The notes beneath the pieces are model-generated. The model saw only the letters and a program-made list of their open reading frames with translations, did no database searches and had not been told where the DNA came from. This document shows, in pieces, positions 15,399-32,972 of a stretch of DNA of 64,000 bases; the first letter of the stretch is position 1; each line of letters opens with the position of its first letter. Origin of the DNA: Patescibacteria group bacterium (GTDB taxonomy: Bacteria; Patescibacteriota; Patescibacteriia; Magasanikbacterales; UBA922); NCBI GenBank assembly GCA_041658785.1, contig JBAZZL010000003.1, forward strand, positions 639 through 64,638, written 5' to 3'. A program made the position numbers and the translations under genes.

Positions 15399-15483
15399 CC
15401 ACGACGCGCGATACCCACGGCACGATTCATTACGAATTGTCCAAATTGAGTCGTGTTGCGTGCATTATGAATCGTGATTTAAT

Positions 15484-16590
15484 ATGTTCACCAATCCTTT
15501 TCCCAACGCATTTGGTCTAGACATCAGCGACCTTTCAGTCAAGACAGTGTGGCTTAGGAATATTTCGCATAGACGAAAATCGCCATCGTATGAATTGGCC
15601 GTTTGCCGATCCGCAAAATTGCCCCACGGCCTGATTGTTAATGGTGAAATCCAAGAGCCGGAATTGGTAAGAAAATATATCAAACATCTTTTGGCAGGAA
15701 AGAAAGGAGAACAGAAGGCCATTAGCGGGAGCTGGGTGGTTGCTTCGCTGCCGGAAACGCAGAGTTTTATAAAAAAACTCACCATCCAAAAACAGCAGGA
15801 TGAAATTATAGAGGACGAGATACTCAGCGCGGCTAAGAAGCATATTCCATTTGACGAGGATAGCTATTATACTGACTGGCAGATTGTGCCGAATGAGACC
15901 GTGAAACAAAACTTTACCAATATATTGGTCGGAGCTGTGCCCAAAACAATTGCCAACAGCTATACTTATCTTTTGGAAAGCATGGGCATGGGAGTGATTT
16001 CTCTGGAAATTGAGGCTCTATCTATCGCTCGGGCGATGATTACCGCGCCGAAGAATTATTCAGGAGAAGCGCGCGCTCTCTTGGATTTGGGGGCGACTAG
16101 ATCCAGTTTTATTATTTATGATCACGACAGCGTGCAATTCAGCATCTCCATCCCATTTTCCGGAGAAATGATTACAACTGCTCTATCGCAAAAGCTGGGG
16201 ATATCGTATGATGATGCAGAGCAGAGAAAGATAAAATGCGGCCTTGATTCAAAGGAGGGCAAAGGAAAGACGTTTATAATAATTTCAACGCTAACCAATC
16301 AATTGGCTGATAATGTAGAAAAAGCGATACAATTCTATTACTCGCATTTTCCCGGCGCGAACAAGATTACCCATATTACTATGTGCGGCGGCATGGCAAA
16401 TTTAAAGAGGCTGGACAAGGTGCTTTCGTTGAAATTGAAAATCAATGCCAAGCCTGGCCGGCCATGGAAAAATCTTATGTCAAAAAAACCAATTCCAGTT
16501 GATATTGAAGAATCCCTTTCGTATGCGACCGCCATCGGCCTGGCGTTGCGCGCCGCGGACAATCCTTTTTTTAGGCATAACATAATATGA
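15484..16590 (+). CDS. pilM: type IV pilus assembly protein PilM (actin-like ATPase)
   Basis: N-terminal GLDISDLSVK motif and the operon position. Confidence 0.7.
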   Translation: MFTNPFPNAFGLDISDLSVKTVWLRNISHRRKSPSYELAVCRSAKLPHGLIVNGEIQEPELVRKYIKHLLAGKKGEQKAISGSWVVASLPETQSFIKKLTIQKQQDEIIEDEILSAAKKHIPFDEDSYYTDWQIVPNETVKQNFTNILVGAVPKTIANSYTYLLESMGMGVISLEIEALSIARAMITAPKNYSGEARALLDLGATRSSFIIYDHDSVQFSISIPFSGEMITTALSQKLGISYDDAEQRKIKCGLDSKEGKGKTFIIISTLTNQLADNVEKAIQFYYSHFPGANKITHITMCGGMANLKRLDKVLSLKLKINAKPGRPWKNLMSKKPIPVDIEESLSYATAIGLALRAADNPFFRHNII

Positions 16591-16608
16591 TTTAAGATTT
16601 TCATTAGT

Positions 16609-17136
16609 ATGTTTCCAACCCGCCTCAATTTGTTGCCGCCAGACAAAAAGAAATATCTTCAGAGGATGATATTTACAGAATTCTCCAAAAGCGCGCTGGA
16701 GTCCATTTTGTTTTTTTTGTGCATCATTGGCATCGCGCTCTTGGGCGGCAGGTGGGTGTTGCAGGGTTATTTCAATGGGCTTGTTGAAGGTATCATTGCC
16801 GTTTCCAGCGAATATGCGCATGCGAATCAGGAGATAAAAAAAATCAATCATATATTGCGCGGCGTCCAGCAGATTCAAGACCAGTATTTTTTGTGGACGC
16901 CAGTTCTTTCAGAATTCACCACAAAAATACCAGACGCAGTCATCCTATCAAGACTTTCTTTTGATATAAAAACCAAAACCGCCGCGCTAAGCGGAACAGC
17001 GGCTACGCGCGATGATCTTTTGGATCTTCAGCGCCGGCTGGAATCTCTATCGTTTATCGCGTCGGCGAGCATCCCATTGTCTCAATTAACAAAGAAAGAA
17101 AATATATCGTTTTCACTTACCGCCCAAATGAATTGA
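16609..17136 (+). CDS. pilN: PilN-like single-pass membrane protein
   Basis: N-terminal TM helix and a position after pilM; weak sequence evidence. Confidence 0.5.
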   Translation: MFPTRLNLLPPDKKKYLQRMIFTEFSKSALESILFFLCIIGIALLGGRWVLQGYFNGLVEGIIAVSSEYAHANQEIKKINHILRGVQQIQDQYFLWTPVLSEFTTKIPDAVILSRLSFDIKTKTAALSGTAATRDDLLDLQRRLESLSFIASASIPLSQLTKKENISFSLTAQMN

Positions 17137-17137
17137 T

Positions 17138-17677
17138 ATGAAAACTTTATCGTTACAACGGAAGATGACATTATTTATTATCGGCATCGCGGCAGTCCTG
17201 ATAGCGATTATCTTTTTGGTTATTATACCATCAGTTTCGCACATAAAAAACTTGAAAAAAGATATAACGAAAACAGAAGAATTTTTGGAAGAACAATATC
17301 AAAAGACCCGTAATTTGCAGAAATCCGTCCGCCGTTTTGAGGAGATCTTGGAACAGACGAAAAAATTCAATGGCATTGCTATCGCCGAGGGAGAAGAGCT
17401 GTCCGTCATCACCCAGCTGGAACAGCTGGCGGCGCAATATAATATTGAACAAAATTTGGATGTTCGGTTCAATAGCGAACCCGCCCTTGGAGCAGGCCTG
17501 CGATCCTATACCTTCTCTTTTTTGAATCTCGGTCTTTTCGCGGACCAGATGCGTTATCTCAAATCCTTTGAGCTGCTGCCGTATTATTTGAATATAGATT
17601 CATTGGATTGGCAAGCGAAACAGTCCGAAGGGGCGGTAACATTAAGATTTAATGCCACAGTGTATGCGACTCTTTAG
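17138..17677 (+). CDS. pilO: PilO-like membrane coiled-coil protein
   Basis: TM helix plus coiled coil, translationally coupled to pilN. Confidence 0.45.
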   Translation: MKTLSLQRKMTLFIIGIAAVLIAIIFLVIIPSVSHIKNLKKDITKTEEFLEEQYQKTRNLQKSVRRFEEILEQTKKFNGIAIAEGEELSVITQLEQLAAQYNIEQNLDVRFNSEPALGAGLRSYTFSFLNLGLFADQMRYLKSFELLPYYLNIDSLDWQAKQSEGAVTLRFNATVYATL

Positions 17678-18017
17678 TAAATTTGGCAAAATAAAAGAAA
17701 ATGCGGTTTTACAGGCCGTTGAGTACAAACATTTTGCCGCCTTGCGGCTGATAAGCTTGGGCTTGATCGGCATTTTTGCAATTAGCATTATTAGTGTGGG
17801 CTTTTTTATCTACCAACACATCTATACTGTGGTCGGGCAAGTGCAGTCAATACTGGTATTGGAATCGCAACTAGGCGCGGCGGTAGTGGATTTTAACACG
17901 CTTGAAAAAGTTGAAGCCGCCTGGCAAGAAAAGTATTCAGCCAATCCGCCGCTCATAGCCAGAGATCCTTTCAGTCCAGCCAATGTTGCGGCTCTTGAGG
18001 AAGAATCAAAAAGATAA
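17652..18017 (+). CDS. hypothetical membrane-anchored protein
   Basis: One TM helix; overlaps the end of pilO. Confidence 0.35.
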   Translation: MPQCMRLFSKFGKIKENAVLQAVEYKHFAALRLISLGLIGIFAISIISVGFFIYQHIYTVVGQVQSILVLESQLGAAVVDFNTLEKVEAAWQEKYSANPPLIARDPFSPANVAALEEESKR

Positions 18018-18070
18018 TAAGCGATGGAAATAGTTTTTGCGGTTGGTTTTGATAATTTGGGCAGCATCTT

Positions 18071-19216
18071 TTGCGAATGAATTTTATGCTTTATTTATTT
18101 CAACTCGGACATCAGCCGCACATCTCCGTTGCTGAAATTGAAGCGGTTTTTTCTAGATTAAGCATTGGATGTAAAACAATTAAACAAGCCGGGCAAAATT
18201 TGCTTATAGAAATTCAAACCAAGCTGGATTGCGGCAAATTGATCCAACTGTTGGGGGGCACAGTAAAAATTTCAGAAAAGATTATTGAAGACAAAAACGC
18301 CATCTCTTCGCTTGTTCAGCACCTAAATAAATTGTATTCAACCGGGAAAATACATTTTTCGCTTTCTGGTAAAAATGCAAAATCAGCGGCGCTTGAAATA
18401 AAAAAAGGCTTAAAAAAAATAGGGCGGTCCGTTCGCTATATTGAACCAAAAAATACCGCCACTATCTTACATAATAAATTAGTAGAAAAAGAGGCTGATC
18501 TCGCTGTCGTCGGCAGTTCAATCTTTGTAACCCGCGCTATTCAGCCTTTTGAAGAATTCAGCGAACGGGATTATGGCCGGCCGAAGAGCGATAGCGCCAG
18601 CGGCATGCTGCCGCCCAAGCTAGCGCGGATAATGATCAATCTCTCAGGATCCAAACAAGGAGAAATAATCCTTGATCCGTTCTGCGGTTCTGGCACAATA
18701 TTAATGGAAGCGGCGTTCATGGGATATACCAATTTTGTCGGATCGGACATTGCTGGAAAAGCCATCCAAGATACTGGACACAACTTGGAATGGATAAAAA
18801 ATAATTTTTCACTCCCCAGTCTTCCTTATCGTTTGTTAAATGCCGGCGCTGCCGAGCTGGGCGAGCGTCTGGATGAGAAATCCATTGATTTTATTGTTAC
18901 CGAGCCATACCTTGGCGGCGCTCTCAAAGGAAATGAAAGCAGAGATAAATTGTCGGCGCAAGCAAAAGAATTGAAAGAACTTTATCTGGGCGTCTTTATG
19001 GTGTTTCATAAGATTCTAAAAGCAGGCGGTTCAGCCGTATTCATAATTCCTCGTTTTAGACACCAAAGCGGTTGGATCACAATTGATTGCGCGGATGAAA
19101 TTAAAAAAACAGGATTTGAAATTATCCCGCTTTCAAAAAAAGAACGGTTTTTGTTGTACTGGCGGACAAAACAACGTCTGGGGAGGGAAATCTGGAAATT
19201 TAAAAAGATCCAGTAA
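18071..19216 (+). CDS. THUMP-domain RNA methyltransferase (putative m2G methyltransferase, Trm11/RlmL-like)
   Basis: SAM motif ILDPFCGSGTIL and catalytic TEPYLGG. Confidence 0.65.
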   Translation: MRMNFMLYLFQLGHQPHISVAEIEAVFSRLSIGCKTIKQAGQNLLIEIQTKLDCGKLIQLLGGTVKISEKIIEDKNAISSLVQHLNKLYSTGKIHFSLSGKNAKSAALEIKKGLKKIGRSVRYIEPKNTATILHNKLVEKEADLAVVGSSIFVTRAIQPFEEFSERDYGRPKSDSASGMLPPKLARIMINLSGSKQGEIILDPFCGSGTILMEAAFMGYTNFVGSDIAGKAIQDTGHNLEWIKNNFSLPSLPYRLLNAGAAELGERLDEKSIDFIVTEPYLGGALKGNESRDKLSAQAKELKELYLGVFMVFHKILKAGGSAVFIIPRFRHQSGWITIDCADEIKKTGFEIIPLSKKERFLLYWRTKQRLGREIWKFKKIQ

Positions 19217-19248
19217 GGGTTTTTTTATCTGACTGTCTGCCGTGTCAG

Positions 19249-19971
19249 TTATTTTTGTAGAAAAAAATTATCAACTGCCTGCCCGACCGCGTAGCCGACA
19301 ATCGCCGCAACGCTGGCAAGTCCGAGCATCTCAAGCCCGGCGAGCCACCACTTTCGTTTTGAATACCGCGTGGTAGCAACGCCCAAAAAGAAAAGGCCGA
19401 TGAGGGTTGTAACCACAGAGATTACAATCGCCAGATGCATTTGAAAAAGAAGATAGGGGACCAAAGGAATGGTTCCGCCGGCGATATAAGAAAAGAACAT
19501 GAATGATCCATTTCGAAATGGTTTTTCAAAGTTTTCCGTGTCTACTTTCAATTCCCTATAAGTCATTTCTTTGAGTAGTAAGGCTTCATCCTTTGCCGCT
19601 TCTTCCGCCATTTTTGCCGCCAGATCCTTGGGCCAGCCGTCATCTACATACATATCAAACAGTTCATTTTTTTCATCTTTGGGAAATTTTTTTATTTCTA
19701 TTTTTTCTTCCGCGATTTTCCGTTCGTCGATAACGCGCTTTGATTTGCTGGACAAGAAAGAACCAACAGCCATTGAAATCGACTCAACAGAAACAATAAC
19801 AAAACCAGCCAGAATAACAGTAAAATGATCTTGGACACTGGCGGCGATGCCGGTAATCGCCCCCAAGGTAGAAACCATTCCATCCTCCATTCCAAAAACA
19901 ACTTCCCGCACTGTTGTTGATAAGCCGTGGTTTCTGTGGTGGATGTATTCAGGGTTGTATTCTATTGACAT
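19249..19971 (-). CDS. VIT1/CCC1 family iron/manganese transporter
   Basis: GMEDGMVSTLGAITGIA motif and C-terminal TM helices. Confidence 0.8.
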   Translation of the reverse strand: MSIEYNPEYIHHRNHGLSTTVREVVFGMEDGMVSTLGAITGIAASVQDHFTVILAGFVIVSVESISMAVGSFLSSKSKRVIDERKIAEEKIEIKKFPKDEKNELFDMYVDDGWPKDLAAKMAEEAAKDEALLLKEMTYRELKVDTENFEKPFRNGSFMFFSYIAGGTIPLVPYLLFQMHLAIVISVVTTLIGLFFLGVATTRYSKRKWWLAGLEMLGLASVAAIVGYAVGQAVDNFFLQK

Positions 19972-20105
19972 AACGGGAATAGTATATCATAAAGAAATTA
20001 TACAACAAAAATCCTCCCGAGCTTTCTCCGGAGGATTTTTTAAATTAAAATTTAACCTGAATTTTTATTTTTGTTTCACCACATATTTTTTGTTTTGATT
20101 AATTC

Positions 20106-20135
20106 CCCGTTTGTCATTCCGGAATGACAAACGGG
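20106..20135. repeat. 30-bp perfect palindrome CCCGTTTGTCATTCC|GGAATGACAAACGGG
   Basis: Read directly. The core TGTCATTCCGGAATGACA recurs at 27237, with a half-copy at 42884. Confidence 0.7.
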
Positions 20136-20145
20136 AAGCATACAA

Positions 20146-23100
20146 TTACCTAATGCCATAACCTTCCTCCGCCGCGGCCGCGCCAATGTTAAAGAATCTG
20201 AAAATCGGCACAAACTGTTCTATGAGCCCCCGCGCAATCCTGACATCAAGCAGTAAAGATGTGTTTGGCGCGGGCGAATTGCCGCCGCCGGCCGGCGTCG
20301 TCGGCTGGGGCGCTGGTGAGAAACTGTTCATCGGTTGGGGTTGAAAATCCGGTTTAACTGATGGCTGTTGAACCGGCGCGGGCTGATTGCTTTCAAACTG
20401 CCGCGGTTCCGATGCACCAAAACCTCCGTTCGGCTGGCTCATCGGCTGCATAATCGGCGTCCGGTGAGTCGGCTCGCTTATCGGCATGCGGTTGGCCGGT
20501 TCTGTCATTTTTCTTTGTTCCATCATCGGCTGGAAATTTTGCGGTTGGTTCGGCGCCGCGCCTCCGCTTTCTCCTGAACCGACGAAATCCGGTTTTTGTC
20601 CCTCAAATCTGTCGCTGGAAAAATCTTGGCCGCGAAAATCTTCCCGCTTAAAGGTGTCAACTTGCCCGCCATCTATCATCGGCCGTTCATTCATCCTCGG
20701 TTCAACTGCCGGCTGACGGTAGTTATTCTGTCCTTCGCCACTCGGCAAAGACGGCTCCTGCGGGATCATCTTTTGCGCCTGGCCATCCATTTGTTGGCGC
20801 GCTTGCTCTTCCAAAAACCGCTCCGTCTCTCGCGTAGTGTCATAATATTTTTGCATCTCTCCGTTTTTCTGCCGCTCTATGTCTAACTGTTTGGTAAACT
20901 GTCCTCTTTCTTCTTGCTGGCACCGTTCATCGCAAAATGGATTCAGTTGCACGTTCTTTTCAAAAATCTCCCCCCGTCGTTCCAAATCCTTTTGCCTAAA
21001 GTCAATCTGTTTTTGCTGGTATTCCTGTTCAACCGTCTTCCGCTCTTCTTCACTTTTTACTTCGGAAAATTTTGCCTTAAACTCTTGGTCAAATTTTTGC
21101 CGCTCTTCCTCGCTCTTCCGTCTGATTTGCTTGTCTTGCATAACATCGCGCTTCTCGGCGAACATCTGACCAAAGCCGCCTTGCCGGTTGGTTATCTCCT
21201 GCAAAATTTCCGGCGGAGTAAAACGTAGTTTGTCCTGAAATTGCGCGAACGCTTCCGGGTTCTCCATGCTGTTTAAATTTTTTACCATCATCTCGGTCTG
21301 TTTGCCAATCGCTTGATCAAAGAATTGCCCAAATCCGGGCGGGGCAAATCCCCCGGCCGTGAACGGTGGCGGGCTTGTCTCGCCGAATTGAGGCGGACCA
21401 AACCCTTCCGGCCCAACGCCCGGCGGCATGCTTTCGTTGCCGAACGGCGGTGGACCCGCCTCGCCGAACGGCGGCGGGCCAAAGAAATCATTTGGGTTCT
21501 CGGTAAATTGAGCTTGAAGTTCCTTTAAGACTTTCACGTCATCGGGATTGGTGGAAGCGATTCGTTCAAAAAATTTATCTTTCTCCTTCGCCGCCCGCTC
21601 AACGAACTGCTGTTTTGCTTCCCGCTGCATTTTTTCTATAAACTCCTTCTTACTTGGATCAAGCGCCGCCTCTTTCTCCAAATCCGCGAGCAGACGAAAG
21701 GTGGTCGGATCAGGATTAGCCGCCATCTTTTTGGACAACTCCTCAAATTTGTTCGCCATTTCTTGCGACCCGAGATCGGTAAAGGTCTCTCTGAATTTGC
21801 CAACGGCTTCTTTTTGCCGTTCTTCAATTTCCATCTTTAAATCCTCGTCTTCTGTTTTCACCCGCTGGCGAATCTCTTCCAGCGCGCGCAGTTTGCTGAC
21901 ATCCGGTCCGCCTTCTTCAAATCGGCTGAACATCCGCTCTTTCATCCTCTGCCGAAAGCCTTCATCAAACGAGGATTCTTCCGCTTGTTCCAATTTATTT
22001 TGAAAACGCCGCGCCGCAATGTCTTTGGCCATTTCCGCTTTTTCCAACAGCTCCAGCGGCGCGTCTTCCAGCTGTTTTAATTTATCAAAAATTTCCAAAT
22101 GCCGCGTCTCGTCGCCGCCCATCCCTTCGGCGTAAAGTTCAAACTGCCCGCCGCGCTCCTCGTCCGGCATTTGCGCGAAATTTTTTTTAAATCTGTTCAA
22201 TGCGTTATCTTCCGCCTGCTCCAGCGCCGCCTTGGCTTCCTCCGGCGCCTGATCGGCTATCTGCTTTAAAATTTCTAAGTTTCTAATTTCTTTAAACTCG
22301 CTCCCGCGCTGATTCTCCATTATACGATCCAACCGTTCCACCATGTGGCCGCTGTTTTTTTCCACCGCGAAAAGCACCTCGCCAACCGCGCCGGCCGATT
22401 CGTCGCGCGCTTGCTGAATTTTTTCCAAAACATTCATCCCTCCCGCCGCCCCCTCTGCCTGTACAGCAACATGATTTTCAATTTTTTCCAAAATTTTCTG
22501 CTGTTTAATCTGTTTGTCCAAAATATTGTCCAGCAGTCGGTCAACCTGTTGATCACCCGCGGCCTTTTTTTCGCGGAGCCCCTCGGCTCCATTTTTAATT
22601 TTTTCTATCCGTCCTTCAAACCTTTCCACCGCGCCGGAAACCGCCTCAAACACTTTTTGATCCGGGCCTTTTATTTCCAGCAAACGGCTGGCGTCGGCCA
22701 ATTCCTGATTCGCGTTTTGCAATCTCACCTCCGCCTTTTTCACCGGATTAAATGTAACCGCTTCCCGCAGCGCCCGGCCGAATCTTTTGAAACCATAAAA
22801 CGGGCTGTCCGGCAAAATCCGGCTTTCGTTCGTTCCCAAATCTTCCGGCCGTACCGTCTCATCAATCACTGCCGCGGCGCTCGCCGTTTCCGGCGGTTCA
22901 ACTGGCGGTTCAGTCACTTCCATAACCTGCGGCTCTTCCGGAACAGGTTGTGGCTCACTAACCTCTGTCTCCTGCGGAGCCGGACCAGCCTGTGCGTCCA
23001 TCGCCGGCGTTTCAACCGCCGCCGGAACGGACGCGCTGTCTTCGGTCTGCGCCGACACCGGCTTCACAAATAAAAAAACAGCTATCAACAATGTGATACC

Positions 23101-23187
23101 TGCCAAAAGATACAAATAGATCAGTGTAAATTCGTTTTTTGCCGAATTAGAAAAGAGAATCTGCTTCTCTTCATTATTTTGTTGCAT
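20146..23187 (-). CDS. DUF5667-family large secreted or membrane-anchored protein (1013 aa) with E/K/Q-rich coiled coil and a PPPFG low-complexity C terminus
   Basis: N-terminal TM helix, then the DUF5667 signature (LPDSPFYGFKRFGRALREAVTFNPVKKAEV). Confidence 0.7.
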   Translation of the reverse strand: MQQNNEEKQILFSNSAKNEFTLIYLYLLAGITLLIAVFLFVKPVSAQTEDSASVPAAVETPAMDAQAGPAPQETEVSEPQPVPEEPQVMEVTEPPVEPPETASAAAVIDETVRPEDLGTNESRILPDSPFYGFKRFGRALREAVTFNPVKKAEVRLQNANQELADASRLLEIKGPDQKVFEAVSGAVERFEGRIEKIKNGAEGLREKKAAGDQQVDRLLDNILDKQIKQQKILEKIENHVAVQAEGAAGGMNVLEKIQQARDESAGAVGEVLFAVEKNSGHMVERLDRIMENQRGSEFKEIRNLEILKQIADQAPEEAKAALEQAEDNALNRFKKNFAQMPDEERGGQFELYAEGMGGDETRHLEIFDKLKQLEDAPLELLEKAEMAKDIAARRFQNKLEQAEESSFDEGFRQRMKERMFSRFEEGGPDVSKLRALEEIRQRVKTEDEDLKMEIEERQKEAVGKFRETFTDLGSQEMANKFEELSKKMAANPDPTTFRLLADLEKEAALDPSKKEFIEKMQREAKQQFVERAAKEKDKFFERIASTNPDDVKVLKELQAQFTENPNDFFGPPPFGEAGPPPFGNESMPPGVGPEGFGPPQFGETSPPPFTAGGFAPPGFGQFFDQAIGKQTEMMVKNLNSMENPEAFAQFQDKLRFTPPEILQEITNRQGGFGQMFAEKRDVMQDKQIRRKSEEERQKFDQEFKAKFSEVKSEEERKTVEQEYQQKQIDFRQKDLERRGEIFEKNVQLNPFCDERCQQEERGQFTKQLDIERQKNGEMQKYYDTTRETERFLEEQARQQMDGQAQKMIPQEPSLPSGEGQNNYRQPAVEPRMNERPMIDGGQVDTFKREDFRGQDFSSDRFEGQKPDFVGSGESGGAAPNQPQNFQPMMEQRKMTEPANRMPISEPTHRTPIMQPMSQPNGGFGASEPRQFESNQPAPVQQPSVKPDFQPQPMNSFSPAPQPTTPAGGGNSPAPNTSLLLDVRIARGLIEQFVPIFRFFNIGAAAAEEGYGIR

Positions 23188-23260
23188 ATTTTTTGTTTTT
23201 ATTTTTGTTTTATGAGGATATTATAGCAGAAAAAATGGGGTTTGTCAATTGGAAAAAACC

Positions 23261-23290
23261 AAAAAACCCCACCGGTGGGGGTTTTTTGGT
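23261..23290. terminator. bidirectional intrinsic terminator AAAAAACCCCACCGGTGGGGGTTTTTT
   Basis: Perfect GC stem flanked by an A-run and a T-run. Confidence 0.7.
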
Positions 23291-23308
23291 TTTTCCGTCT
23301 TTAATCAT

Positions 23309-23641
23309 TTACAAAATCCTTATTCCGGTCTGTCTGATTTCATCAATCAACATGCTTCCCTCCTGAAAGTCTCTGGGGTGATAGCCGACCGGTTCAATAA
23401 CCGGTTGGTGGGGATCGCGGATCGGAGCCAAATAATTCCAAAGGTAACGTTTTGCTTTCCACGGATTATTAAATTTTGGCGAAACAATACAAACATCAAT
23501 GTCGCTCCATTTGTTCGCGTTTCCTTTGGCAAAAGAGCCAAAAATATACACCGACCTGATCGGTAATTTTTCTTCTCGAAGCCGGCCGACAAATTCTTCT
23601 ACTTCTTTTTTTATTTTTTTTGGTACTGTCTTTTTAGCCAT
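23309..23641 (-). CDS. minimal nucleotidyltransferase (MNT) antitoxin
   Basis: GSFAKGNANKWSDIDV motif (GSx10DxD). Confidence 0.8.
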   Translation of the reverse strand: MAKKTVPKKIKKEVEEFVGRLREEKLPIRSVYIFGSFAKGNANKWSDIDVCIVSPKFNNPWKAKRYLWNYLAPIRDPHQPVIEPVGYHPRDFQEGSMLIDEIRQTGIRIL

Positions 23642-24021
23642 AAATTATACGAGCGGCAAATTTTAAGCCACTTATTAGCATAGCTTTCCGTGCACCGCTT
23701 ATAAAAAGCGTATTTTTCATCTTCGTATCTTCCCGCGATATTGAAATCGGTAATCTCCCGAAAATCTCTCGTTTGTTTTTGGTTTAGCGCCAAATCCGCC
23801 AATGCCGCCAGTCGCGCCAAATCGTGAATGCGCGGCGGTAATTCTTTCGTCTTCAAAACCACGAGCCCCTTTAACAACTTTTCGATCGTGAGGTGAGCAA
23901 AAAATAAAGAGTCGCTATAGCGCCTGCCCTTGAAAAGATACAGCGCCGTATCCCAATTCCGGCTGGCAGAAAGGCGCCAATAGGAAATCTGTTTGCTAAT
24001 TTTCTGTGACGAAAGCTGCAT
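23611..24021 (-). CDS. HEPN-domain protein (toxin partner of the MNT)
   Basis: 136 aa helical ORF with an R-x-x-HD motif (PRIHDL). It overlaps the MNT gene by ~30 nt. Confidence 0.7.
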   Translation of the reverse strand: MQLSSQKISKQISYWRLSASRNWDTALYLFKGRRYSDSLFFAHLTIEKLLKGLVVLKTKELPPRIHDLARLAALADLALNQKQTRDFREITDFNIAGRYEDEKYAFYKRCTESYANKWLKICRSYNLWLKRQYQKK

Positions 24022-24079
24022 AACATCCTTAGTATACGAAATAATTTTAGCAAAGTCAACATTTTTTAGTTACCACCAA

Positions 24080-25222
24080 TCACGCCGATACATGAAAATA
24101 ACACACATCCCCATCCTTCACCTCATACTCTTTCCCCACCAACTGCAACACTCCTTTCTCCTTCGCGCCGGCCCAGCCGCCGCACGCGACAAAATCCGGC
24201 CACGGCACAACGTCGGCTTTGATATAACCCTTGATAAAATCCGTATGAATCACGCCCGCGGCCCCCGGCCCCTTGGTTCCCCATTTAACCGTCCACGCCC
24301 GCGTCTCCGGCTCGCCGGAAGTGAAGTAAGTAACTAAATCCAACAATTTATAACCGGCGACAATTATCTTATCCAACCCAGACTGCTCCAGCCCGCTCGC
24401 TTTCAGATACTCCCTCGCCTCCGCCGCCGTCAAATCCGCCAACTCCGCTTCCAACTTCGCCGAGATATTCACACCCACTTCGCTGTCTGTCAAAAAATTA
24501 GTTTCCTGCTTGTTTTCCCGCCAAAGCCCCGTAGCGAACGGGGTCCCGCTTCGTTGCGATGACGGGACCCCGCTCGCTGCGGGGCCAGTTTCTTCGCAGT
24601 TAAAAACATACATCATCGGCTTCATCGTCAAAAGATGCAAGTCCTTTATTGTCAGCGCTTCCTCATCGGTGTAATCCAACGAACGCGCCGACTTGCCCGA
24701 TTCCAAATGCGTGTTCAGTTTTTCCAACAATTCAATCTCCGCTTTGGTCTGTTTGTCAACGAGCCCCTTGGCCTTTTTTTTGGTATTCGCAAGGCGATTT
24801 TCCACTGTCTGCCAATCGGCCAAAACTAACTCCAAGTTGATCACTTCCGCGTCTTCTTTGGGATCAACTTTATTATGAACGTGCATCACGTTAGCATCTT
24901 CAAACGCACGCACGACTTGAACAATCGCGTCCACTTCTCTGATGTGCGAAAGAAATTTGTTGCCCAGCCCCTCGCCTTCCGAAGCGCCTTTGACTAAGCC
25001 GGCGATGTCAACAAATTTAATTGCCGTAGGGATTATTTTTTTTGATTTTGAAACATCGGCCAGTTTTTGCAGGCGTTCATCAGGAACTTCAACAATACCA
25101 ATGTTCGGTTCAATGGTGCAAAAAGGATAATTTTGCGCGTCGGCCTGCTTGCTGCGGGTGAGGGCGTTAAACAGGGTTGACTTGCCGACATTGGGGAGAC
25201 CGACGATTCCGAGGGAGAGCAT
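24080..25222 (-). CDS. ychF: ribosome-binding ATPase YchF
   Basis: G1 GLPNVGKST, a coiled-coil domain and the C-terminal TGS domain ([14 protein letters not shown]...GDV). Confidence 0.85.
24527..24587. repeat. GC-rich 61-bp imperfect palindrome (23-nt arms, 2 mismatches) embedded in-frame in ychF
   Basis: GCCCCGTAGCGAACGGGGTCCCG / CGGGACCCCGCTCGCTGCGGGGC. It encodes ...[20 protein letters not shown]... Confidence 0.6.
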
Positions 25223-25452
25223 ATCATGATGCACGATACACGTATCACGAGTCATACACGAATTGTCCAACTGATTTGTGATGTGTTTCTAGTGACTTGT
25301 GGCGTAGTTTGTGATGAGGACGCCATTATTATGAAGAAATGGGGATTAAAAGTCAACCGCGGGTGTCATTTTGTAAATATCATCTCGATTTATTTGAAAA
25401 ACTTTGACTCTCTCTTTCTTTTTAATTATAATTGAAGACGAAGGAGGTGCAC

Positions 25453-25545
25453 ATGTTTTGGAGACAGCTATCTTTCAATTTGGGAATAGTGCTCGCCCTT
25501 TCGTTGCTGGGAATCCTACTCGGCATGCTGATCGACAAGTGCTGA
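25453..25545 (+). CDS. 30-aa hydrophobic small ORF (MFWRQLSFNLGIVLALSLLGILLGMLIDKC)
   Basis: Strong SD AAGGAGGT 5 nt upstream. Single TM helix. Confidence 0.35.
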   Translation: MFWRQLSFNLGIVLALSLLGILLGMLIDKC

Positions 25546-25559
25546 TGTCCCCACCAGGC

Positions 25560-25850
25560 CAAAGGAGGTTCCCCACAAACCACCCGACGCCTGCCCCAAT
25601 TCTGAAACAGATTCAGGGTTGAGGTAGGAGTTTCGCCGGGTGGTTTTGTTGTTGGAGGCGGGGTTTGGGCGGTAATCCGACAACCCTACCTCTGTCTCCT
25701 TCCCTTATGAAAGGAAGGAGAACCTTTTAAGAAAGTTCAACTAAATTCAATTGTTAGCCCCTTTCCATTCATAAGGGAAAGGGGTTGGGGATAGGGTTGT
25801 CGCCAAACACCCACGCACCACATTGACTTTCCCCCCAAAATCAATTATCC
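25560..25850 (+). ncRNA. GC-rich structured non-coding region upstream of tig (candidate ncRNA or cis-regulatory RNA)
   Basis: Long-range stem GAGGTAGG...CCCTACCTC. Two hairpins, CTCCTTCCC-TTATGAAA-GGAAGGAG and CCCCTTTCC-ATTCATAA-GGGAAAGGGG, whose loops are reverse complements of each other. Confidence 0.3.
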
Positions 25851-25924
25851 TATAACAACATTATCCGCATCAATTCGCGTTCGCAACTCATAAACCCTTC
25901 ACCCTTAAACCCATAAATTCAATT

Positions 25925-27211
25925 ATGCAATATTCATCCAAAAAATTAGAAAAATCCCAAATAGAAATCACCATCACCGTCACTCCTGAAGAATGCCGTC
26001 CGCACCTGGAAAAGGCGGCCCAGAGAATTTCCGTGCGGACCGCGATTAAGGGTTTCCGGCCAGGGAAAGCGCCGTATGATATTGTCAAACGCGAGGCCGG
26101 CGAGATGGCGATTTTGCAAGAAGCGCTGGAGTCAATTATTCAAAAAACTTTCTTCCATGCGGCAATAACCGAGGAAAAACTAGAGACTATCGGCATGCCG
26201 AAGATTGACGTTGACAAAATAGCGCCGGGCAATGATCTCGTTTACCGAGCTGTTGTCGCCGTTTTGCCGCTTGTTAATTTGCCTGATCTCAAAAAAATCA
26301 AAGTGGAAAAAAAAGAAGCCAAAATTGATGCTAAAAAAGTTGAAGAAACCCTTGACGCCCTTCGCGGCATGCGCGCCAAAGAGGTGATAAAACAAGGTCC
26401 TGCCCAAGGAACGGACAAACTGACGATTGATATGGACATGTTGATTGATAATGTGCCGGTGGAAGGCGGCCAAGCAAAGAATTACCATGTTTACCTTGGA
26501 GAAAGTCATTACATTCCGGGATTCAACGAGCAAGTGAAAGGGATGAAAGAAGGAGAGGAAAGAGAATTTCAACTGGATTTTCCTGTTACTCATTACCAAA
26601 AACACCTAGCCGGCAGAAGAGTTAATTTTAAAGTAAAAGCCAAGGGCGTTTACGAGCGCCAGTTGCCAGAACTTGATGAAGAGTTTGCCAAAACGTTCGG
26701 TCAGGAGAACGTGGAAAAATTGCGCGCGCTGGTTAATAACAATCTTTTGCAAGAAGCCGAACAGAAAATCAAGCAACAAACCGAGATTGATATTTTGGAA
26801 CAGCTTATCGCGAATACTGAATTCGGCGATCTGCCGGAAGTCTTGATTGATTCCGAGCGGCAAAAAATGTTTTACGAACTCAAGCGCGATCTGGAGCGAA
26901 ACGGAGTTTCTATTGAACAATATTTGCAAGACATTAAAAAAGGAGAAAAAGAACTGTTTGAAGATTTCAAAAATCAAGCCGAAAAACGCGCCAAGGCCGC
27001 GCTGATTTCCCGCCAAGTCGCGAAAGAGCAAAATATTATTGTTTCAGACGAAGAATTAGATAAAGAAGTCGAGCTTATCCGGCAGGCCTATGCCAATGAT
27101 AAAGATACGCGAGAAAATTTGAAAAAACCTAAAGTGAGAGAATCTCTCGCGGTGACGGTGCAGAATCGGAAGATAATGGAGTATTTACGAGCGGCCATAT
27201 TGTCGTCCTGA
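25925..27211 (+). CDS. tig: trigger factor
   Basis: N-terminal ribosome-binding domain (GFRPGKAP), PPIase and C-terminal domains. Confidence 0.9.
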   Translation: MQYSSKKLEKSQIEITITVTPEECRPHLEKAAQRISVRTAIKGFRPGKAPYDIVKREAGEMAILQEALESIIQKTFFHAAITEEKLETIGMPKIDVDKIAPGNDLVYRAVVAVLPLVNLPDLKKIKVEKKEAKIDAKKVEETLDALRGMRAKEVIKQGPAQGTDKLTIDMDMLIDNVPVEGGQAKNYHVYLGESHYIPGFNEQVKGMKEGEEREFQLDFPVTHYQKHLAGRRVNFKVKAKGVYERQLPELDEEFAKTFGQENVEKLRALVNNNLLQEAEQKIKQQTEIDILEQLIANTEFGDLPEVLIDSERQKMFYELKRDLERNGVSIEQYLQDIKKGEKELFEDFKNQAEKRAKAALISRQVAKEQNIIVSDEELDKEVELIRQAYANDKDTRENLKKPKVRESLAVTVQNRKIMEYLRAAILSS

Positions 27212-27254
27212 ATCCCGATTCGCATCGGGATAACATTGTCATTCCGGAATGACA
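27212..27254. repeat. hairpin ATCCCGAT-TCGC-ATCGGGAT followed by the palindrome TGTCATTCCGGAATGACA
   Basis: Read directly. The palindrome overlaps the start codon of the DUF167 gene. Confidence 0.55.
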
Positions 27255-27485
27255 AAAAGATCTATGTTCATCAAACTAAAAACCATTCCTCGCTCTTCCC
27301 GCGACCAAATAATCAAGCTCTCTGAAAACGAATACAAAGTAAAACTAACCGCGGCGCCAGTTGACGGAAAAGCGAACGATAGTCTAGTTGAATTGTTAAG
27401 CGAGGAGTGGAACATCCCAAAATCAAAAATAAAAATCGCCAAAGGCTTGGCGAGTAGAAAAAAGCTGGTTGAAATTTTAGATTAA
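27249..27485 (+). CDS. DUF167/YggU family protein
   Basis: 78 aa. The DGKANDSLVELLSEEW motif is typical of UPF0235. Confidence 0.65.
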   Translation: MTKRSMFIKLKTIPRSSRDQIIKLSENEYKVKLTAAPVDGKANDSLVELLSEEWNIPKSKIKIAKGLASRKKLVEILD

Positions 27486-27761
27486 CTATTCAGGCAAATC
27501 TATCCCGCCTCTGCTCCATGGATTACACCGCAAAACCCGCCAAATAATTTTAGGAATGCCAATAAGGATTCCTCTTTTTTTTATCACCTGGCTGGAGTAT
27601 TCACTGCAGGTTGGAAAATACTTGCAATAGCCGTGCGGGCGGACGCGCTTGGCCCAGAAACTATGATCTGGAGAGAGGATTTTTTGATACAATTTTATTA
27701 ATAAGACCATCAAGCGCCTTGGGAGAAGAAATGATTTTTTATAATTTTGTTTAATTTTCAT
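27486..27761 (-). CDS. yidD: membrane protein insertion efficiency factor YidD
   Basis: CKYFPTCSEY...RCNPWSRGGIDLP motif. Confidence 0.8.
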   Translation of the reverse strand: MKIKQNYKKSFLLPRRLMVLLIKLYQKILSPDHSFWAKRVRPHGYCKYFPTCSEYSSQVIKKRGILIGIPKIIWRVLRCNPWSRGGIDLPE

Positions 27762-28134
27762 ACAACAGCCTCGCTCTTTTAAACACCGTCATAATCGCTT
27801 TTTCTATCTCCGCATATTCACAATCTAAAATATCCGCTTTCGCCAACACCGCGATCATGTATCCGCTTTTTATTTTTTTTTCTTTCAGCAACAATCTCAC
27901 CACCTCGCGCATCCGCCGCTTTATCAGGTTCCTTTTTACCGCGCTTTTGCTGACTTTGATCCCAACCACAAATCCAATTTTTAGATCATCTTTTGGATAC
28001 TTTCGGCGAGGGTATTTTTTTGGATCTATTTTCCAAATTTTTATATTCAAAAAATCGCCGGCAATAAATCCGCCCTCCTTGAAAAGAATTTCAAAATCTT
28101 TCATTTTGCGGAGCCGGTATTGTTTCGGGAGCAT
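27751..28134 (-). CDS. rnpA: RNase P protein component
   Basis: Basic 127 aa ORF with the RNR-like KRNLIKRRMRE motif, directly upstream of yidD. Confidence 0.8.
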   Translation of the reverse strand: MLPKQYRLRKMKDFEILFKEGGFIAGDFLNIKIWKIDPKKYPRRKYPKDDLKIGFVVGIKVSKSAVKRNLIKRRMREVVRLLLKEKKIKSGYMIAVLAKADILDCEYAEIEKAIMTVFKRARLLYEN

Positions 28135-28139
28135 ATTAG

Positions 28140-29645
28140 TTATTTTATAAGCAGTGAAGCGCTGGTCATTTCTTTTGGTTTTTGCAAGTCCATCAAATCA
28201 AGAATTGTCGGCGCTGTTTGATTAAGAAAGCCTGCTTTTGGCAGTTTAACACTTTGTTCGGTGATAACCAGCGGCACCCCATTGAATGTATGCGCGGTAT
28301 GAGGCTGGCCAGCATGATGCATGTATTCAATATTGCCGTGGTCTGCGGTAATAAAAACAGTATAGCCAAGCTCTGCTGCCATGGGGACAATTTGCGAGAG
28401 CGCGCGATCTACCGCCAGCACCGCTTTTATGCCCGCGGCCATCTCCCCGCTGTGTCCCACGATATCTCCATTGGCAATATTGCAAACCAAAAAATCAAAA
28501 GATTTAGTTTCTAGCGCGCGAATTAGGGATTTAGTAATTTCCGGCAAGCTCATTTCAGGCTGAGGCGCGTAGTTTTCCAATCCCAAAGAAGGAATGATGA
28601 TCCTGCTTTCATTGGCAAAAGTGAGTTCCCTGCCGCCATTAAAAAAATATGTAATATGAGCGTATTTTTCTGTTTCAGCGATGCGAAATTGCCTTAGCCC
28701 TTGCGAGTCCAACCGCTCCGGCAACGTGTTGTTTGGAATTTGTTTGGAAAATAATACTTGAACATCGGAGAAATCATCATGGTACTTAGCCATGCTCGCC
28801 AAAAAAAGATTTTGCGGCACCTCAATTGTCTGCTGAATTGCATGCGGCGCGCGCTTGGTAAATAGCCGCGCCATCTGGCGCATTCGATCAGCGCGAAAGT
28901 TGAAAAAGATTATCGCGTCGTTATTATTTACAGTGTGGTCAGAAAAATTCGCCGGTTGCATGAATTCGTCGGTTATTTTTTCCGCGTATCTTTTTTCGAT
29001 GTATTTTATCGGACTGTCTGATTGAATTTCATCATTTTTTAAAATAGCATTATATGCTGTTATTGTCCTTTCCCAATTTTCTGTTCTATCCATTCCAAGC
29101 GATCTGCCAATCAGGGTGCTGATAGCAACATTGTCCGGAAGTTTTTTTTGCAATGGCCGCAACAAGCCCAATGCGCTCATTGGAGGCATGTCGCGCCCAT
29201 CCAGATAGAGGTGCAACGCGGTTGAGCTCATTTTTTCTTTTTGCGTCCATTCAATCAGCGCGTTCAGGTGATTGATATGTGAATGTATACCCGCGTCGCT
29301 CAACATGCCAACAAGATGCAGGGCGCTGGCATATGTTTCAGTGTGCTGTTTTATTTTTTGGAGGATTTCATTATCAAAAAAAGTTCCATTTTCAATAGCT
29401 TTATCAATGGCAGCGGTCTGTTGCCACACCACTCGCCCGGCGCCAATGGCGGTGTGTCCGACTTCTGATCCGGAGAGGCAGCCGTTCGGCAAACCGACAG
29501 ATTCTTCTTTGCAGTGGAGATTTGAGTTTGGATAAATCTTCAGAAGATTGTTCCAGTATGGCGGATCAGCCTCGGCAATCGGGTTGTGTTCTTTTTTTGG
29601 ATTGATTCCCCAGCCATCAAGTATTAAAAGAAGAATTTTTTTCAT
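28140..29645 (-). CDS. gpmI: 2,3-bisphosphoglycerate-independent phosphoglycerate mutase
   Basis: LLILDGWG, SEVGHTAIGAGR and the C-terminal metal-binding DHGN motif. Confidence 0.9.
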   Translation of the reverse strand: MKKILLLILDGWGINPKKEHNPIAEADPPYWNNLLKIYPNSNLHCKEESVGLPNGCLSGSEVGHTAIGAGRVVWQQTAAIDKAIENGTFFDNEILQKIKQHTETYASALHLVGMLSDAGIHSHINHLNALIEWTQKEKMSSTALHLYLDGRDMPPMSALGLLRPLQKKLPDNVAISTLIGRSLGMDRTENWERTITAYNAILKNDEIQSDSPIKYIEKRYAEKITDEFMQPANFSDHTVNNNDAIIFFNFRADRMRQMARLFTKRAPHAIQQTIEVPQNLFLASMAKYHDDFSDVQVLFSKQIPNNTLPERLDSQGLRQFRIAETEKYAHITYFFNGGRELTFANESRIIIPSLGLENYAPQPEMSLPEITKSLIRALETKSFDFLVCNIANGDIVGHSGEMAAGIKAVLAVDRALSQIVPMAAELGYTVFITADHGNIEYMHHAGQPHTAHTFNGVPLVITEQSVKLPKAGFLNQTAPTILDLMDLQKPKEMTSASLLIK

Positions 29646-29671
29646 AGACTAAAAGCATCGGAAAGGATTCT

Positions 29672-30028
29672 TTAAGCGGCCTCTGACAGAGCTTGTTTTT
29701 TTGTGGAAGTATCATCTCTAGTTTGTCCTGGTAATTTGATTTCTGTGAGAGGTATTTCTTTAAAACCCATTGGGTTGCCATGCAGGCCGCTGGGATTGGT
29801 ACGGGGAGCAAAAGAGTCTGCTTTGATTATTTTTTGATTTAATTTATCAGGATCTTTTGGGACAAGAATGTCTCCAAAAGGAACATTTTTTGATTCCATA
29901 TAAAATAATATTAATCCGTCTCCGTCTCTGTCCGCCGAGTTGGCGGACTGCGCCGGATAGGTTTTTGGTTTAATCCCAATTTTAATATCTATACCATTCG
30001 TGTTTATACGGCCCATTGACGCTAACAT
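29672..30028 (-). CDS. hypothetical small protein
   Basis: ORF only; overlaps the end of ahcY; contains DRDGDG. Confidence 0.25.
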
Positions 30029-31391
30029 TAATATACCCCGCCTGTTCTTTCGTTAATCTCGTCAGTTTAACCCCAATCTTATCCAAATGCAAACGCGCCA
30101 CTTCTTCGTCCAGTTCTTTGGGGAGAGTGGTAACGCCGATCGGATGTTTTTTGGTCCAAAGTTCAATCTGGGCGAGCGTCTGATTGCTGAAACTATTACT
30201 CATCACAAAGCTAGGGTGGCCGGTGGCGCAGCCCAGATTGACGAGCCGGCCCTCGGCCAAGAGATAGATTTCATTGCCATTGGGAAAAATATATTTGTCC
30301 ACCTGCGGTTTGATATTGATTTTTTTAACGCCGTTTAGTTTATTTAGCGGTTCAACTTGAATTTCATTGTCAAAATGTCCGATATTGCAGACAATCGCCT
30401 GATCTTTCATTTTTTCCAGATGTTCAACGCGGATGACGTCTCTGTTTCCGGTGGCGGTGATGTAAATGTCCGCCCGCCCCAGAGTATTTTCAACAGTAGT
30501 AACTTCATAGCCCTCCATCGCCGCCTGCAAAGCGCAGATGGGGTCAATCTCGGTTACAATCACTCGCGCTCCCTGCCCGCGCAGGGCTTGGGCGCAGCCC
30601 TTGCCCACTTCGCCATAGCCGCAGACGACCGCCACTTTGCCGCCGATCATCGCGTCCATGGCGCGGTTCAGCCCGTCCAGTACCGAATGGCGGCAGCCGT
30701 AGATGTTGTCAAATTTTGATTTGGTGACAGAATCGTTGACGTTGATGGCGGGGAATAATAGCTTTCCTTCTTTTGCCAACTGATATAGCCGATGCACGCC
30801 CGTGGTCGTTTCTTCGGATACGCCCTTCACATTTTTTGCCACACCTGTCCAGAGGTTTTGTTTTTTCGCGTAAAGATTTTTTAACGCTTTCATCAACTCT
30901 CTAAAATCTTCTCCTTCGCCCGAATAATCTTTTTTCAAAAGCGCGGGGTTGTTTTCTATTTCCACGCCTTGGTGGATCATGAGCGTCGCGTCGCCGCCAT
31001 CATCAACAATTAAATTCGGCCCTTGCCAATTTCCAAAATCAAGCGCTCTCATCGTGCACCACCAATAATCCGCGAGCGTTTCGCCTTTCCAGGCAAATAC
31101 CGGAATGCCCGTTTTCGCTATCGCCGCCGTGGCATGGTCTTGCGTGGAAAAGATGTTACAACTGGCCCAGCGCACTTTGGCGCCGAGGGCGGCGAGCGTT
31201 TCAATCAAGACCGCGGTCTGAATCGTCATGTGGAGCGAGCCGGTGATTTTCGCGCCTTTCAACGGTTTTGTTTTCGCGTATTTTTTCCTGATCGCCATGA
31301 GGCCGGGCATTTCTTTTTCCGCGATTTCAATTTCTTTGCGGCCGAGGAGGGCGAGGGAGAGGTCGGCGACTTTGTAATCTGTTTTTGGCAT
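29982..31391 (-). CDS. ahcY: adenosylhomocysteinase
   Basis: SAHH signatures; NAD-binding [10 protein letters not shown]. Confidence 0.9.
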
Positions 31392-31410
31392 AGTGCTTAT
31401 GAAAATTAAC

Positions 31411-31683
31411 CTAATTTCTAATACTTTGAATTACGAAACGTAGATTTTCATCATTCCCATTTAAAGGACTCTTCGCAGTGTGAATCGGTCTTCGCGGTAA
31501 TCCGCACCTCATCCCCCTGCCCCTTCTCCTTGAAGGAGAAGGGGGGTTGCCAATTGTCCATCTGGCTTCCCCTCTCCTTTTAGGAGAGTGGCTAGGGGTG
31601 AGGTGCGGGTTACCGCGAAGAGTTTTCGGAACGGTGAGTGACAGTTGTGTGCCGTTTCGTAATTCAAAGTAATTAGAAATTAG
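31411..31683. mobile_element. MITE-like structured repeat element, full copy with ~30-bp terminal inverted repeats
   Basis: TIR CTAATTTCTAATACTTTGAATTACGAAACG at 31411-31440 pairs with CGTTTCGTAATTCAAAGTAATTAGAAATTAG at 31653-31683. A ~150-nt core carries the long stem CTTCGCGGTAAYCCGCACCTCATCCCCC...GGGGTGAGGTGCGGGTTACCGCGAAG and two internal hairpins. A near-identical core lies at 43958. Confidence 0.55.
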
Positions 31684-32030
31684 GTCAATTAGGTTAATTT
31701 AAAACTTCTACATGCAAGAATTATCCTCTGTATACTAAATACCCCACATAAACCGCGTACATCATCACAAACATCACCCCCTGCCAGCGGTCTAATTTGT
31801 GTTAAGAAAATAAAACAGACCTTATTATAGTCCGGTTAGAGGAGAAAGACAAGTTTTTGAGGCAGATTAATTTATGTAATCTAGAATTTACGCGTTTGAA
31901 ATCTGATTCACTTTTTAGGTAAAAGGAGTAACAGACGACCCAAAGGGAGTCTGTCCAACGACCGAATTGAACGCACTCCCCACGGGTCGTGCGTTACTCC
32001 AATTTATAATGAAACGCGTAAGTTCTGTAA

Positions 32031-32972
32031 TTATAAATTTATCGTCTCTCCGTACGTCTCCCGATATCTCCCCTCAAACTCTTTCAGAGTAAATCGGTGA
32101 TTCTGCGTACCGTAATTTTCCACCGCGTAAGTGGCCGCGACCGAACCAACCTGGCCGCAGGTTTTGAGATCATGCCCGTTCACATAGGCGGTAAAGAATC
32201 CAGCGCGATAAGCATCGCCGGCGCCAGTCGGGTCGTCAGTGGAGCGTGGCTGGCAAGGCATAATTTCAAGAATTTTATTTTTGGTGGTAATGATTGATCC
32301 TTTGCTTCCCAGTGTAGTAATCAGCACCCCAACATGGTTTAGCATTTCATGTCCATCCCAACCGGTTTTTTCTTCAATCAATTTCATTTCATAATCATTG
32401 CCAATCAAAAATTTCGCCTGGCCAATCGCGGCCATCAGCTCTTGCGGAGACAGAGCCGGTATTTGCTGGCCCGGGTCAAAGACAAATGGAATTTTGAGAT
32501 CATAACATTCTTTGGCATGCTTTACCATCGCGTCTTTTTGCGTCGGAGAGATCAAGGCGAAATCAATTTTTTCTTTAACATCGCTGATATTTAATTTGGC
32601 TGCCTCGGAATGCGCGCCATTGTAAAACGCGGTTATTTGATTATCATCTTTGTCCGTGGTAATATGGGCCGAGCCGGTTAGTTTTTCTTTGGCAATGATA
32701 ATGTAGTTGGTATTGATGCCTTTTTTATTTAGATAATCAAGATAGTCTTTTCCGTCAGTTCCCATCGGAGAGAAGACGATTGGCTCTCCGCCGAGCAATT
32801 TGACAGTATGGGCGATGTTGGCCGCGGTGCCGCCGTAATTTTTGTGCAGTTTGTCCACGGTAAAACAGACATTCAGAATATGAATCTGGTCCGGCAGGAT
32901 ATGATTTTTGAAACTATCCGGAAAGTCCATAATGAAGTCGTAGGCGATGGTGCCGGAGATGAGGATGGTCAT
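32031..32972 (-). CDS. PfkB family carbohydrate/nucleoside kinase (ribokinase or adenosine kinase-like)
   Basis: DPTGAGDA signature, N-terminal GG motif. Confidence 0.8.
   Translation of the reverse strand: MTILISGTIAYDFIMDFPDSFKNHILPDQIHILNVCFTVDKLHKNYGGTAANIAHTVKLLGGEPIVFSPMGTDGKDYLDYLNKKGINTNYIIIAKEKLTGSAHITTDKDDNQITAFYNGAHSEAAKLNISDVKEKIDFALISPTQKDAMVKHAKECYDLKIPFVFDPGQQIPALSPQELMAAIGQAKFLIGNDYEMKLIEEKTGWDGHEMLNHVGVLITTLGSKGSIITTKNKILEIMPCQPRSTDDPTGAGDAYRAGFFTAYVNGHDLKTCGQVGSVAATYAVENYGTQNHRFTLKEFEGRYRETYGETINL

Follow-up and report, generated by a model that had tools for sequence, protein, structure and literature searches.

Rickettsia provides the textbook curiosity of palindromic DNA lying in frame in conserved genes, and dimers of repetitive extragenic palindromic (REP) sequences are likewise known from a few other bacteria. 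The case described here is a GC-rich palindrome within ychF, on contig JBAZZL010000003.1 (assembly GCA_041658785.1) of a Patescibacteria group bacterium of the Magasanikbacterales; the 64-kb stretch of this contig that was analyzed is called the window below. REPs lying wholly within known genes have been described, and more than half of them are dimers or groups that encode 20-30 residues (Di Nocera et al. 2013, PMC3733652). These intragenic REPs were argued to be neutral, being located in flexible loops. REPs of the CGTC type carry a terminal CGTC, TGTC or CCTC motif, an 8-9 bp stem that starts with A-T pairs, a loop of 4-5 nt and a CCA tail; the CGTC-tagged superfamily includes RPE-4 and RPE-6 of Rickettsia as well as dRS3 (PMC3733652). 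The Rickettsia palindromic elements (RPEs) were described as in-frame insertions compatible with the protein fold (review on MITEs, or miniature inverted-repeat transposable elements, PMC10969869, summarising Ogata et al. 2000, 2002).

The host gene encodes a YchF/Ola1 ATPase, recognised by an Obg-type G domain with the G4 motif NxxE, by a helical domain present as an insert and by a TGS domain at the C terminus. It matches the Pfam families MMR_HSR1 and YchF-GTPase_C (TGS) and aligns over its full length with YchF structures (PDB 2DBY, E = 5e-109; E. coli 8KIE and H. influenzae 1JAL, all E <= 1e-102). The closest public proteins are Patescibacteria YchFs, mostly from Magasanikbacteria, of 352-367 aa and 64-75% identity; orthologues start with MLSLGIVG. 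A sequence-only reading had placed a palindrome of 61 bp and ~75% GC in this gene at 24527-24587. Its presence was confirmed, with a length of 60 nt and a start one base off (Table 1), and its GC content was measured as 75%. The gene itself, put at ~40% GC by that reading, has 51% (50% without the palindrome) in a window of 45%; the contrast in GC is real but weaker than supposed.

The two arms are complementary at 21 of 23 positions (91%) and are separated by 14 nt. Folding of 96 nt of RNA around the palindrome gave -59.8 kcal/mol (z = -7.8, none of 200 shuffles equally stable), the 60 nt folded alone gave -52 kcal/mol, and the DNA fold of the region had a z of -6.0. The 64 kb contain just three GC-rich hairpins (stem >=12 bp, GC >=60%), and the other two are much shorter. 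On the coding strand, the palindrome is composed of G, the hairpin unit CCCCGC-AGCGA-GCGGGG, TCCCG, the centre TCATCGCAACGAAG, CGGGA, the unit CCCCGT-TCGCT-ACGGGG and C. Taken singly, the arms make small hairpins with a stem of 6 bp (8 bp counting one G-T pair) and a 5-nt loop; on the forward strand the left arm holds CCCCGT-AGCGA-ACGGGG at 24527-24543 and the right arm CCCCGC-TCGCT-GCGGGG at 24568-24584. An arm can be written as the unit CCCCGY-AGCGA-RCGGGG followed by TCCCG, the 17-nt unit being CCCCGYAGCGARCGGGG. The two units are inverted, 24 nt apart, and together form one 23-bp hairpin; they are also able to form separately, at -23 kcal/mol. The layout is that of an inverted dimer of REP-type units. 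Four of the six reading frames of the palindrome are open, and the frame used has no stop.

Comparison with orthologues identified the 60 nt as an insertion. Loop length was taken as what separates the conserved KPMMYV strand from the SAKLEAE motif across the 120 best YchF matches. In these orthologues the loop measures 18-44 residues, typically 20-25, and the window YchF has the longest of all with 47. Among the 120 proteins the inserted residues are present only in P0001, a 268-aa fragment from the same population that is 100% identical over its 268 aa, and they are absent from the other 119 (64-75% identical). The sequence-only reading had announced an extra ~20-30 residues not expected in YchF; they number 20, and orthologues from related genomes with the same residues in ordinary codons, which would have spoken against an insertion, did not turn up among the 120 closest. 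Exact removal of the 60 nt keeps the frame and yields a 360-aa protein of normal length, with a 27-residue loop that falls within the normal range. The arms differ at just 2 of 23 positions, which indicates that the palindrome is young relative to the divergence of the orthologues; a quarter of the residues differ even in the nearest relatives.

An AlphaFold2 model of YchF, built on 110 aligned sequences, had a mean pLDDT of 83 and a pTM of 0.80. Its low-confidence segments are residues 26-37, close to the N-terminal end of the G domain, and residues 214-237, the insertion. The latter were modelled with a pLDDT <50 between the well-modelled strands 203-209 and 249-253, and the insertion follows directly upon the G4 motif N208-C-E-E211 on strand 203-209. 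In the model it lies inside the second half of the G domain, after the helical domain (helices 121-195) and before the TGS domain. The position between helical and TGS domains given by the sequence-only reading was correct in linear order but imprecise. The inserted segment, rich in Gly, Pro, Ser, Ala and Thr, is probably a disordered surface loop according to this model, leaving the G, helical and TGS domains intact. As with RPEs, a conserved gene carries the insertion in frame and at a place that the protein structure permits, as seen from the orthologue alignment, the 60-nt frame and the modelled disorder. The insertion is in frame, recent, placed directly after the G4 motif and predicted to be disordered. 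That it is a lineage-specific insertion tolerated by YchF, as anticipated, is well supported by the 360-aa reading frame left after deletion and by the modelled disorder.

As to its origin, we lean towards selfish or neutral DNA, a REP-dimer-like hairpin that has become part of the ychF coding sequence. Indirect support for this comes from the REP-dimer-like architecture, from a gene resembling REP-associated tyrosine transposases (RAYT) in the window and from REP dimers in the same loop of other Patescibacteria YchFs. Two further features of the window point the same way, the palindrome in frame within that RAYT-like gene and the two copies of a nested palindrome of ~200 bp (Table 1). A hairpin repeat of this genome would have been moved into ychF by tyrosine transposases of the IS200/RAYT type, along their single-strand, duplication-free route, and the palindrome may well have no function of its own. 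Four circumstances would have allowed it to persist: its length of exactly 20 codons; a stop-free frame; a landing site in the one YchF loop, just past the G4 NxxE, that is free in length and sequence among relatives; and added residues that would form a disordered surface loop and spare the G, helical and TGS domains. The flanks, CCAAA before the palindrome and CAGTT after it (...GCCAAA and CAGTTT...), share no direct repeat, and no target-site duplication is found. This fits the route of a Y1 tyrosine transposase and argues against a MITE of the DDE type, as it does against a classical MITE. Of the REP/MITE-type assignment in the sequence-only reading, the REP-like part is plausible from architecture and context, although no second copy was found, and the MITE part is unlikely, given flanks without a target-site duplication.

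The same protein loop is occupied by palindromic DNA in other Patescibacteria. A 73-nt palindromic dimer was found at this site in the YchFs P0067 (locus L123:795-867), P0115 (L125:10705-10777) and P0109 (L131). One unit of the P0067 dimer consists of TGTC, ATTCCCGC, CGCAA, GCGGGAAT and CCA, and fits the published CGTC-type definition throughout, with the TGTC variant of the tag, an 8-bp stem starting with A-T, a 5-nt loop and the CCA tail (PMC3733652). These dimers resemble the window palindrome in the protein loop they occupy, in their order of hairpin unit, 5-bp inner stem, spacer of 11-15 nt, 5-bp inner stem and hairpin unit, and in the peptide words PAASG.P and SG.P...G. They differ in their TGTC...GACA ends, A/T-starting stems, length of 73 nt and GC content of 50%, and they occur in lineages that are not sisters to that of the window. 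When the loop was masked, a neighbour-joining tree, without support values, put the three carriers far from the window YchF, so the insertions look independent; P0067 pairs there with an insert-free sequence.

In many related YchFs this loop is formed by tandem heptanucleotide repeats, e.g. (GAAATTG)4 and (GTGGACA)3.5; orthologue loci with such heptamer loops include L129:1001-2077 (P0012), L130:2950-4020 (P0002) and L127 (P0060). Among 105 distinct YchF loops, residue identity at offset 7 was 11.6%; other offsets gave 5-9%, and the remainder of the protein 7.7%. The content of the loop differs in each lineage examined: in the window it is a GC-rich palindrome, P0067, P0115 and P0109 have CGTC-type REP dimers, P0071 has a peptide of the 'PSPLRRGG' type (protein only) and others have heptamer arrays. 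The G4-G5 loop of Patescibacteria YchF as a recurrent, possibly targeted sink for the hairpin or simple-repeat DNA of each genome, going beyond mere tolerance of such DNA, is a doubtful idea at present. If it were true, the loop would record the repeat repertoire of the genome. Heptamers are not multiples of three, so that slippage in copy number would shift the ychF frame, and changes in their number could then switch ychF on and off.

A RAYT gene in the genome is expected where REPs are mobilized, and the open reading frame at 46101-46856 resembles such a gene. It matches NCBIfam NF047646 (REP_Tyr_transpos) with E = 4.7e-17 and 62 bits, under the curated cut-off of 80 because the match is split in two stretches by an insertion, and it matches Pfam Y1_Tnp with 27.1 bits, above the cut-off of 23. 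Its HUH and Tyr (WQPRFYDH) motifs align to those of E. coli TnpA_REP (PDB 4ER8). Between these catalytic motifs the protein has 99 residues, compared to 26 in the E. coli protein, and it is there that the RAYT-like gene carries a GTAG...CTAC palindrome in frame; the repeat unit is GTTCGTGTAGAGGCGCATTG joined to CAATGCGCCTCTACACGAAC and encodes VRVEAHCNGRVRVEAHCN. In-frame palindromes are hence not unique to ychF in this genome. Peptides of the 'HCNASL' type presumably occur at the same spot in other IS200-like transposases.

Several observations weigh against a REP-like origin, first among them the lack of further copies. REP families have many dispersed copies, and the sequence-only reading had proposed a search for others; a second copy of the arm was not found in the 64-kb window (<=3 mismatches, 0 expected by chance; blastn-short). 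No copy was found in IMG/VR viral contigs, using a tighter two-arm pattern and a single-unit pattern, and a blastn search of phage and plasmid records returned nothing relevant. The 33-aa peptide was matched by P0001 only among 1.84 billion representative proteins. RPE families share a conserved peptide in many unrelated genes; here the peptide was seen in the same gene of the same population only. A six-frame peptide query against 5.8 billion proteins gave 67 word-sharing candidates, none with E <= 10, in a search so insensitive that the known self-match was missed as well. The tighter pattern had a single match in JGI metagenome contigs (L121), a weak negative as the element-carrying locus L122 was not returned either; L121 was rejected as a further copy, since what it shows is an unrelated terminator, lying downstream of a gene from a GC-rich organism. 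The pattern used on a genome collection, CGGGGTCCCG N{8,24} CGGGACCCCG, was too loose, and the matches listed were terminator hairpins of Streptomyces, Sphingomonas and similar genomes. Membership of the palindrome in a REP/MITE repeat family is unproven; REP families are often species-specific.

The remaining points concern the sequence of the palindrome and its possible enzyme. A GTAG is present in the left arm at 24531-24534, immediately 5' of a 14-bp stem. However, this GTAG is base-paired to CTGC of the other arm, its mirror position reads GCAG, and chance alone would put a GTAG on one strand or the other of 60 nt in an estimated ~45% of cases. The terminal CGTC/TGTC/CCTC tag is absent, the four bases outside the unit stems being AACT on the coding strand and CCAA on the + strand. 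Compared with a CGTC-type REP, a stem of 8 bp can form (GGCCCCGC/GCGGGGTC, one G-T pair included) and the loop AGCGA, of 5 nt, agrees, while the stem starts with G/C instead of A-T and the tail is CCG. No connection between the RAYT-like gene and the ychF hairpin has been demonstrated. The nucleotide similarity between the palindrome and the P0067 dimer has a z of ~3 over shuffles, a value inflated by palindromic symmetry. Homology of the palindrome to the P0067/P0115 dimer is not claimed, since the similarity amounts to ~3 sd only, symmetry doubles the arm similarity and the carriers are not sisters; the likeness in layout was kept.

The strongest rival, in our view possible though rather unlikely, is a local one-off origin. 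The palindrome would have been made in place, for instance by template switching or fold-back priming that copied a stretch of the loop inverted, would then have drifted neutrally and would never have been mobile. A singleton in every searchable data set, with neither a target-site duplication nor a canonical REP tag, is what such an event would leave behind, and the loop is generally unstable, with tandem heptanucleotide repeats in relatives that arise locally by slippage. However, the arms have a GC content of 75%, compared to 32-57% in the surrounding loop and in the loops of relatives, and the pre-existing loop is not an obvious source for them. Moreover, the arms are hairpin units in their own right, the 5-nt loop being the same in both; this is the layout of a REP dimer and not of a simple inverted duplication, and true REP dimers stand in the same loop of other lineages.

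A role of the palindrome as functional RNA or DNA structure is improbable. The -52 kcal/mol hairpin might have been kept because it slows the ribosome, offers RNase III a site for tuning ychF mRNA, terminates antisense transcription or binds the RAYT-like protein. Its structure is indeed very stable, one of the two positions at which the arms differ can pair in the mRNA as a G-U wobble, and the 3' unit with CCAGTTTCTT after it was picked out as terminator-like on the antisense strand. Yet the hairpin is not conserved: the closest orthologues lack it and ychF works without it. No Rfam family was matched, the near-perfect pairing is equally well explained by youth, and the terminator-like match is a weak consensus match of which 6 were found in the region compared to 3.5 expected. 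Other identities were tried as well. An integron attC site, a riboswitch or another known RNA was rejected, with no Rfam match and no R'/R'' core sites visible by eye, as was an intrinsic terminator of ychF, with no T-run after the hairpin on the sense strand.

An assembly artefact, a hairpin or chimeric join from the assembler or library preparation, is extremely unlikely, for although palindromes are known to give rise to artefacts in sequencing and assembly, the insert has a length of exactly 20 codons, lacks a stop and is bordered by intact conserved motifs on both sides, and the same 60 nt are found base for base in an independent JGI assembly that differs at 30 other positions. This assembly (contig Ga0265296_1001717, locus L122) is 99.85% identical to the window over 19.9 kb (14993-34887), and none of the 30 differing positions is in or near the palindrome. 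The sole difference in ychF is one A fewer in the A-run at 25110, by which the gene call of L122 is split into 73 aa and 268 aa; it reflects either an error in sequencing or a genuine frameshift variant within the population. Twenty of the 30 differences are within 184 bp (17425-17608), in a gene of unknown function beside PilN/PilM pilus genes, and a further nine within 15119-15410 (T2SSF gene region). Both are local hypervariable or recombined patches, with substitutions that show no adenine specificity.

Table 1 Features of the window discussed in the text (positions are those of the window)
Feature	Position	Strand	Size or copies	Remarks
ychF	24080-25222	-	380 aa	stop codon included in position; conserved motifs and domains all intact
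GC-rich palindrome	24526-24585		60 nt	inserted 20 codons of ychF, residues 213-232
Left arm of palindrome, GCCCCGTAGCGAACGGGGTCCCG	24526-24548	+	23 nt	
Central spacer of palindrome, CTTCGTTGCGATGA	24549-24562	+	14 nt	loop of the long hairpin
Right arm of palindrome, CGGGACCCCGCTCGCTGCGGGGC	24563-24585	+	23 nt	
Hypervariable G4-G5 loop of YchF (FNCEET...GVNI)	24476-24616	-	47 aa	permissive site holding the palindrome
RAYT-like gene	46101-46856	-		candidate enzyme for moving hairpin repeats; context only
Second in-frame GC-rich palindromic repeat, GTAG...CTAC type	46383-46474		~1.6 copies	inside RAYT-like gene; encodes VRVEAHCNGRVRVEAHCNAPLHE
Nested GC-rich palindromic element	31440-31640; 43956-44162		two copies of ~200 bp	93% identical
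Tandem arrays	59656-60094; 8731-8813; 9140-9265; 35519-35609; 35977-36014; 39231-39322			
Tandem arrays, further	47269-47347; 47830-47858; 48076-48318; 49996-50068; 54596-54623			

Other repeats are present in the window. The nested palindromic element of ~200 bp has internal hairpins such as CCCCTTCTCCTTGAAGGAGAAGGGG, and its copy at 31.5 kb is intergenic by the gene calls of L122. The YchF loop of P0071 (SPRPSPLRRGG...PPLPQRKGQG), seen as protein only, resembles a translation of this type of element. Tandem arrays with periods of 7 and 8 are abundant in the genome; many consist of an array followed by its reverse complement, with a unit that differs per locus. The largest comprises ~54 heptamers (GAAAYTG) at 59656-60037 and faces (CAATTTC)n at 60052-60094. 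This arrangement looks like hairpins built from repeats.

Directly downstream of ychF, at 23309-24021, lies a nucleotidyltransferase/HEPN pair of the toxin-antitoxin type, which is absent there in the syntenic loci of the relatives L123, L125 and L130. Positions 1-6000 of the window contain patches of 58-84% GC in the 45% GC window; the genes there encode a GNAT acetyltransferase, a PIN-domain protein and a DUF3228 protein, besides several long open reading frames without a Pfam match. This part may have been acquired horizontally as an island, or it may be a chimeric end of the contig.

The ychF case is clean and datable: its arms are near-perfect, the empty state is known from relatives and the permissive loop has been modelled. 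It also holds a warning for annotators: odd loops rich in G, P, S and A in proteins of candidate phyla may be translated repeat DNA and not functional inserts specific to a lineage. One loop repeatedly occupied by different repeats would outweigh the single copy in interest, if a survey confirmed it. A full-text search found no report of in-frame palindrome insertions in Patescibacteria or the candidate phyla radiation, which is weak evidence of novelty.

The known systems with which the palindrome can be compared include MITEs such as ERIC and Correia elements, for which in-frame fusions are described (PMC10969869). The palindrome shares with them that a small non-autonomous inverted-repeat element can sit in an open reading frame, but it lacks a target-site duplication, terminal inverted repeats apart from the hairpin, and copies. 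RPEs, likened here by description only, occur in dozens of copies of ~100-150 bp with a conserved peptide, in contrast to the one copy of 60 bp in the window; both are palindromic DNA in frame in a conserved gene, translated, at a site compatible with the fold. The intragenic REP dimers differ from the palindrome in their dispersed copies, in their unpaired terminal GTAG or CGTC/TGTC, in stems that start with A-T and not G/C and in a tail of CCA and not CCG, and the host here belongs to the Patescibacteria. Like these dimers, however, the palindrome consists of two short inverted stem-loop units able to fold into one long hairpin, lies wholly within a known gene to which it adds ~20 residues, has a 5-nt unit loop and an 8-bp unit stem (with one G-T pair) within the published ranges and shares its genome with a RAYT-like gene. 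The palindrome in ychF is a further example of tolerated in-frame DNA, probably selfish or neutral, of a kind already known from Rickettsia and other bacteria, and it extends the occurrence of in-frame palindromic DNA in conserved genes to the small-genome Patescibacteria.

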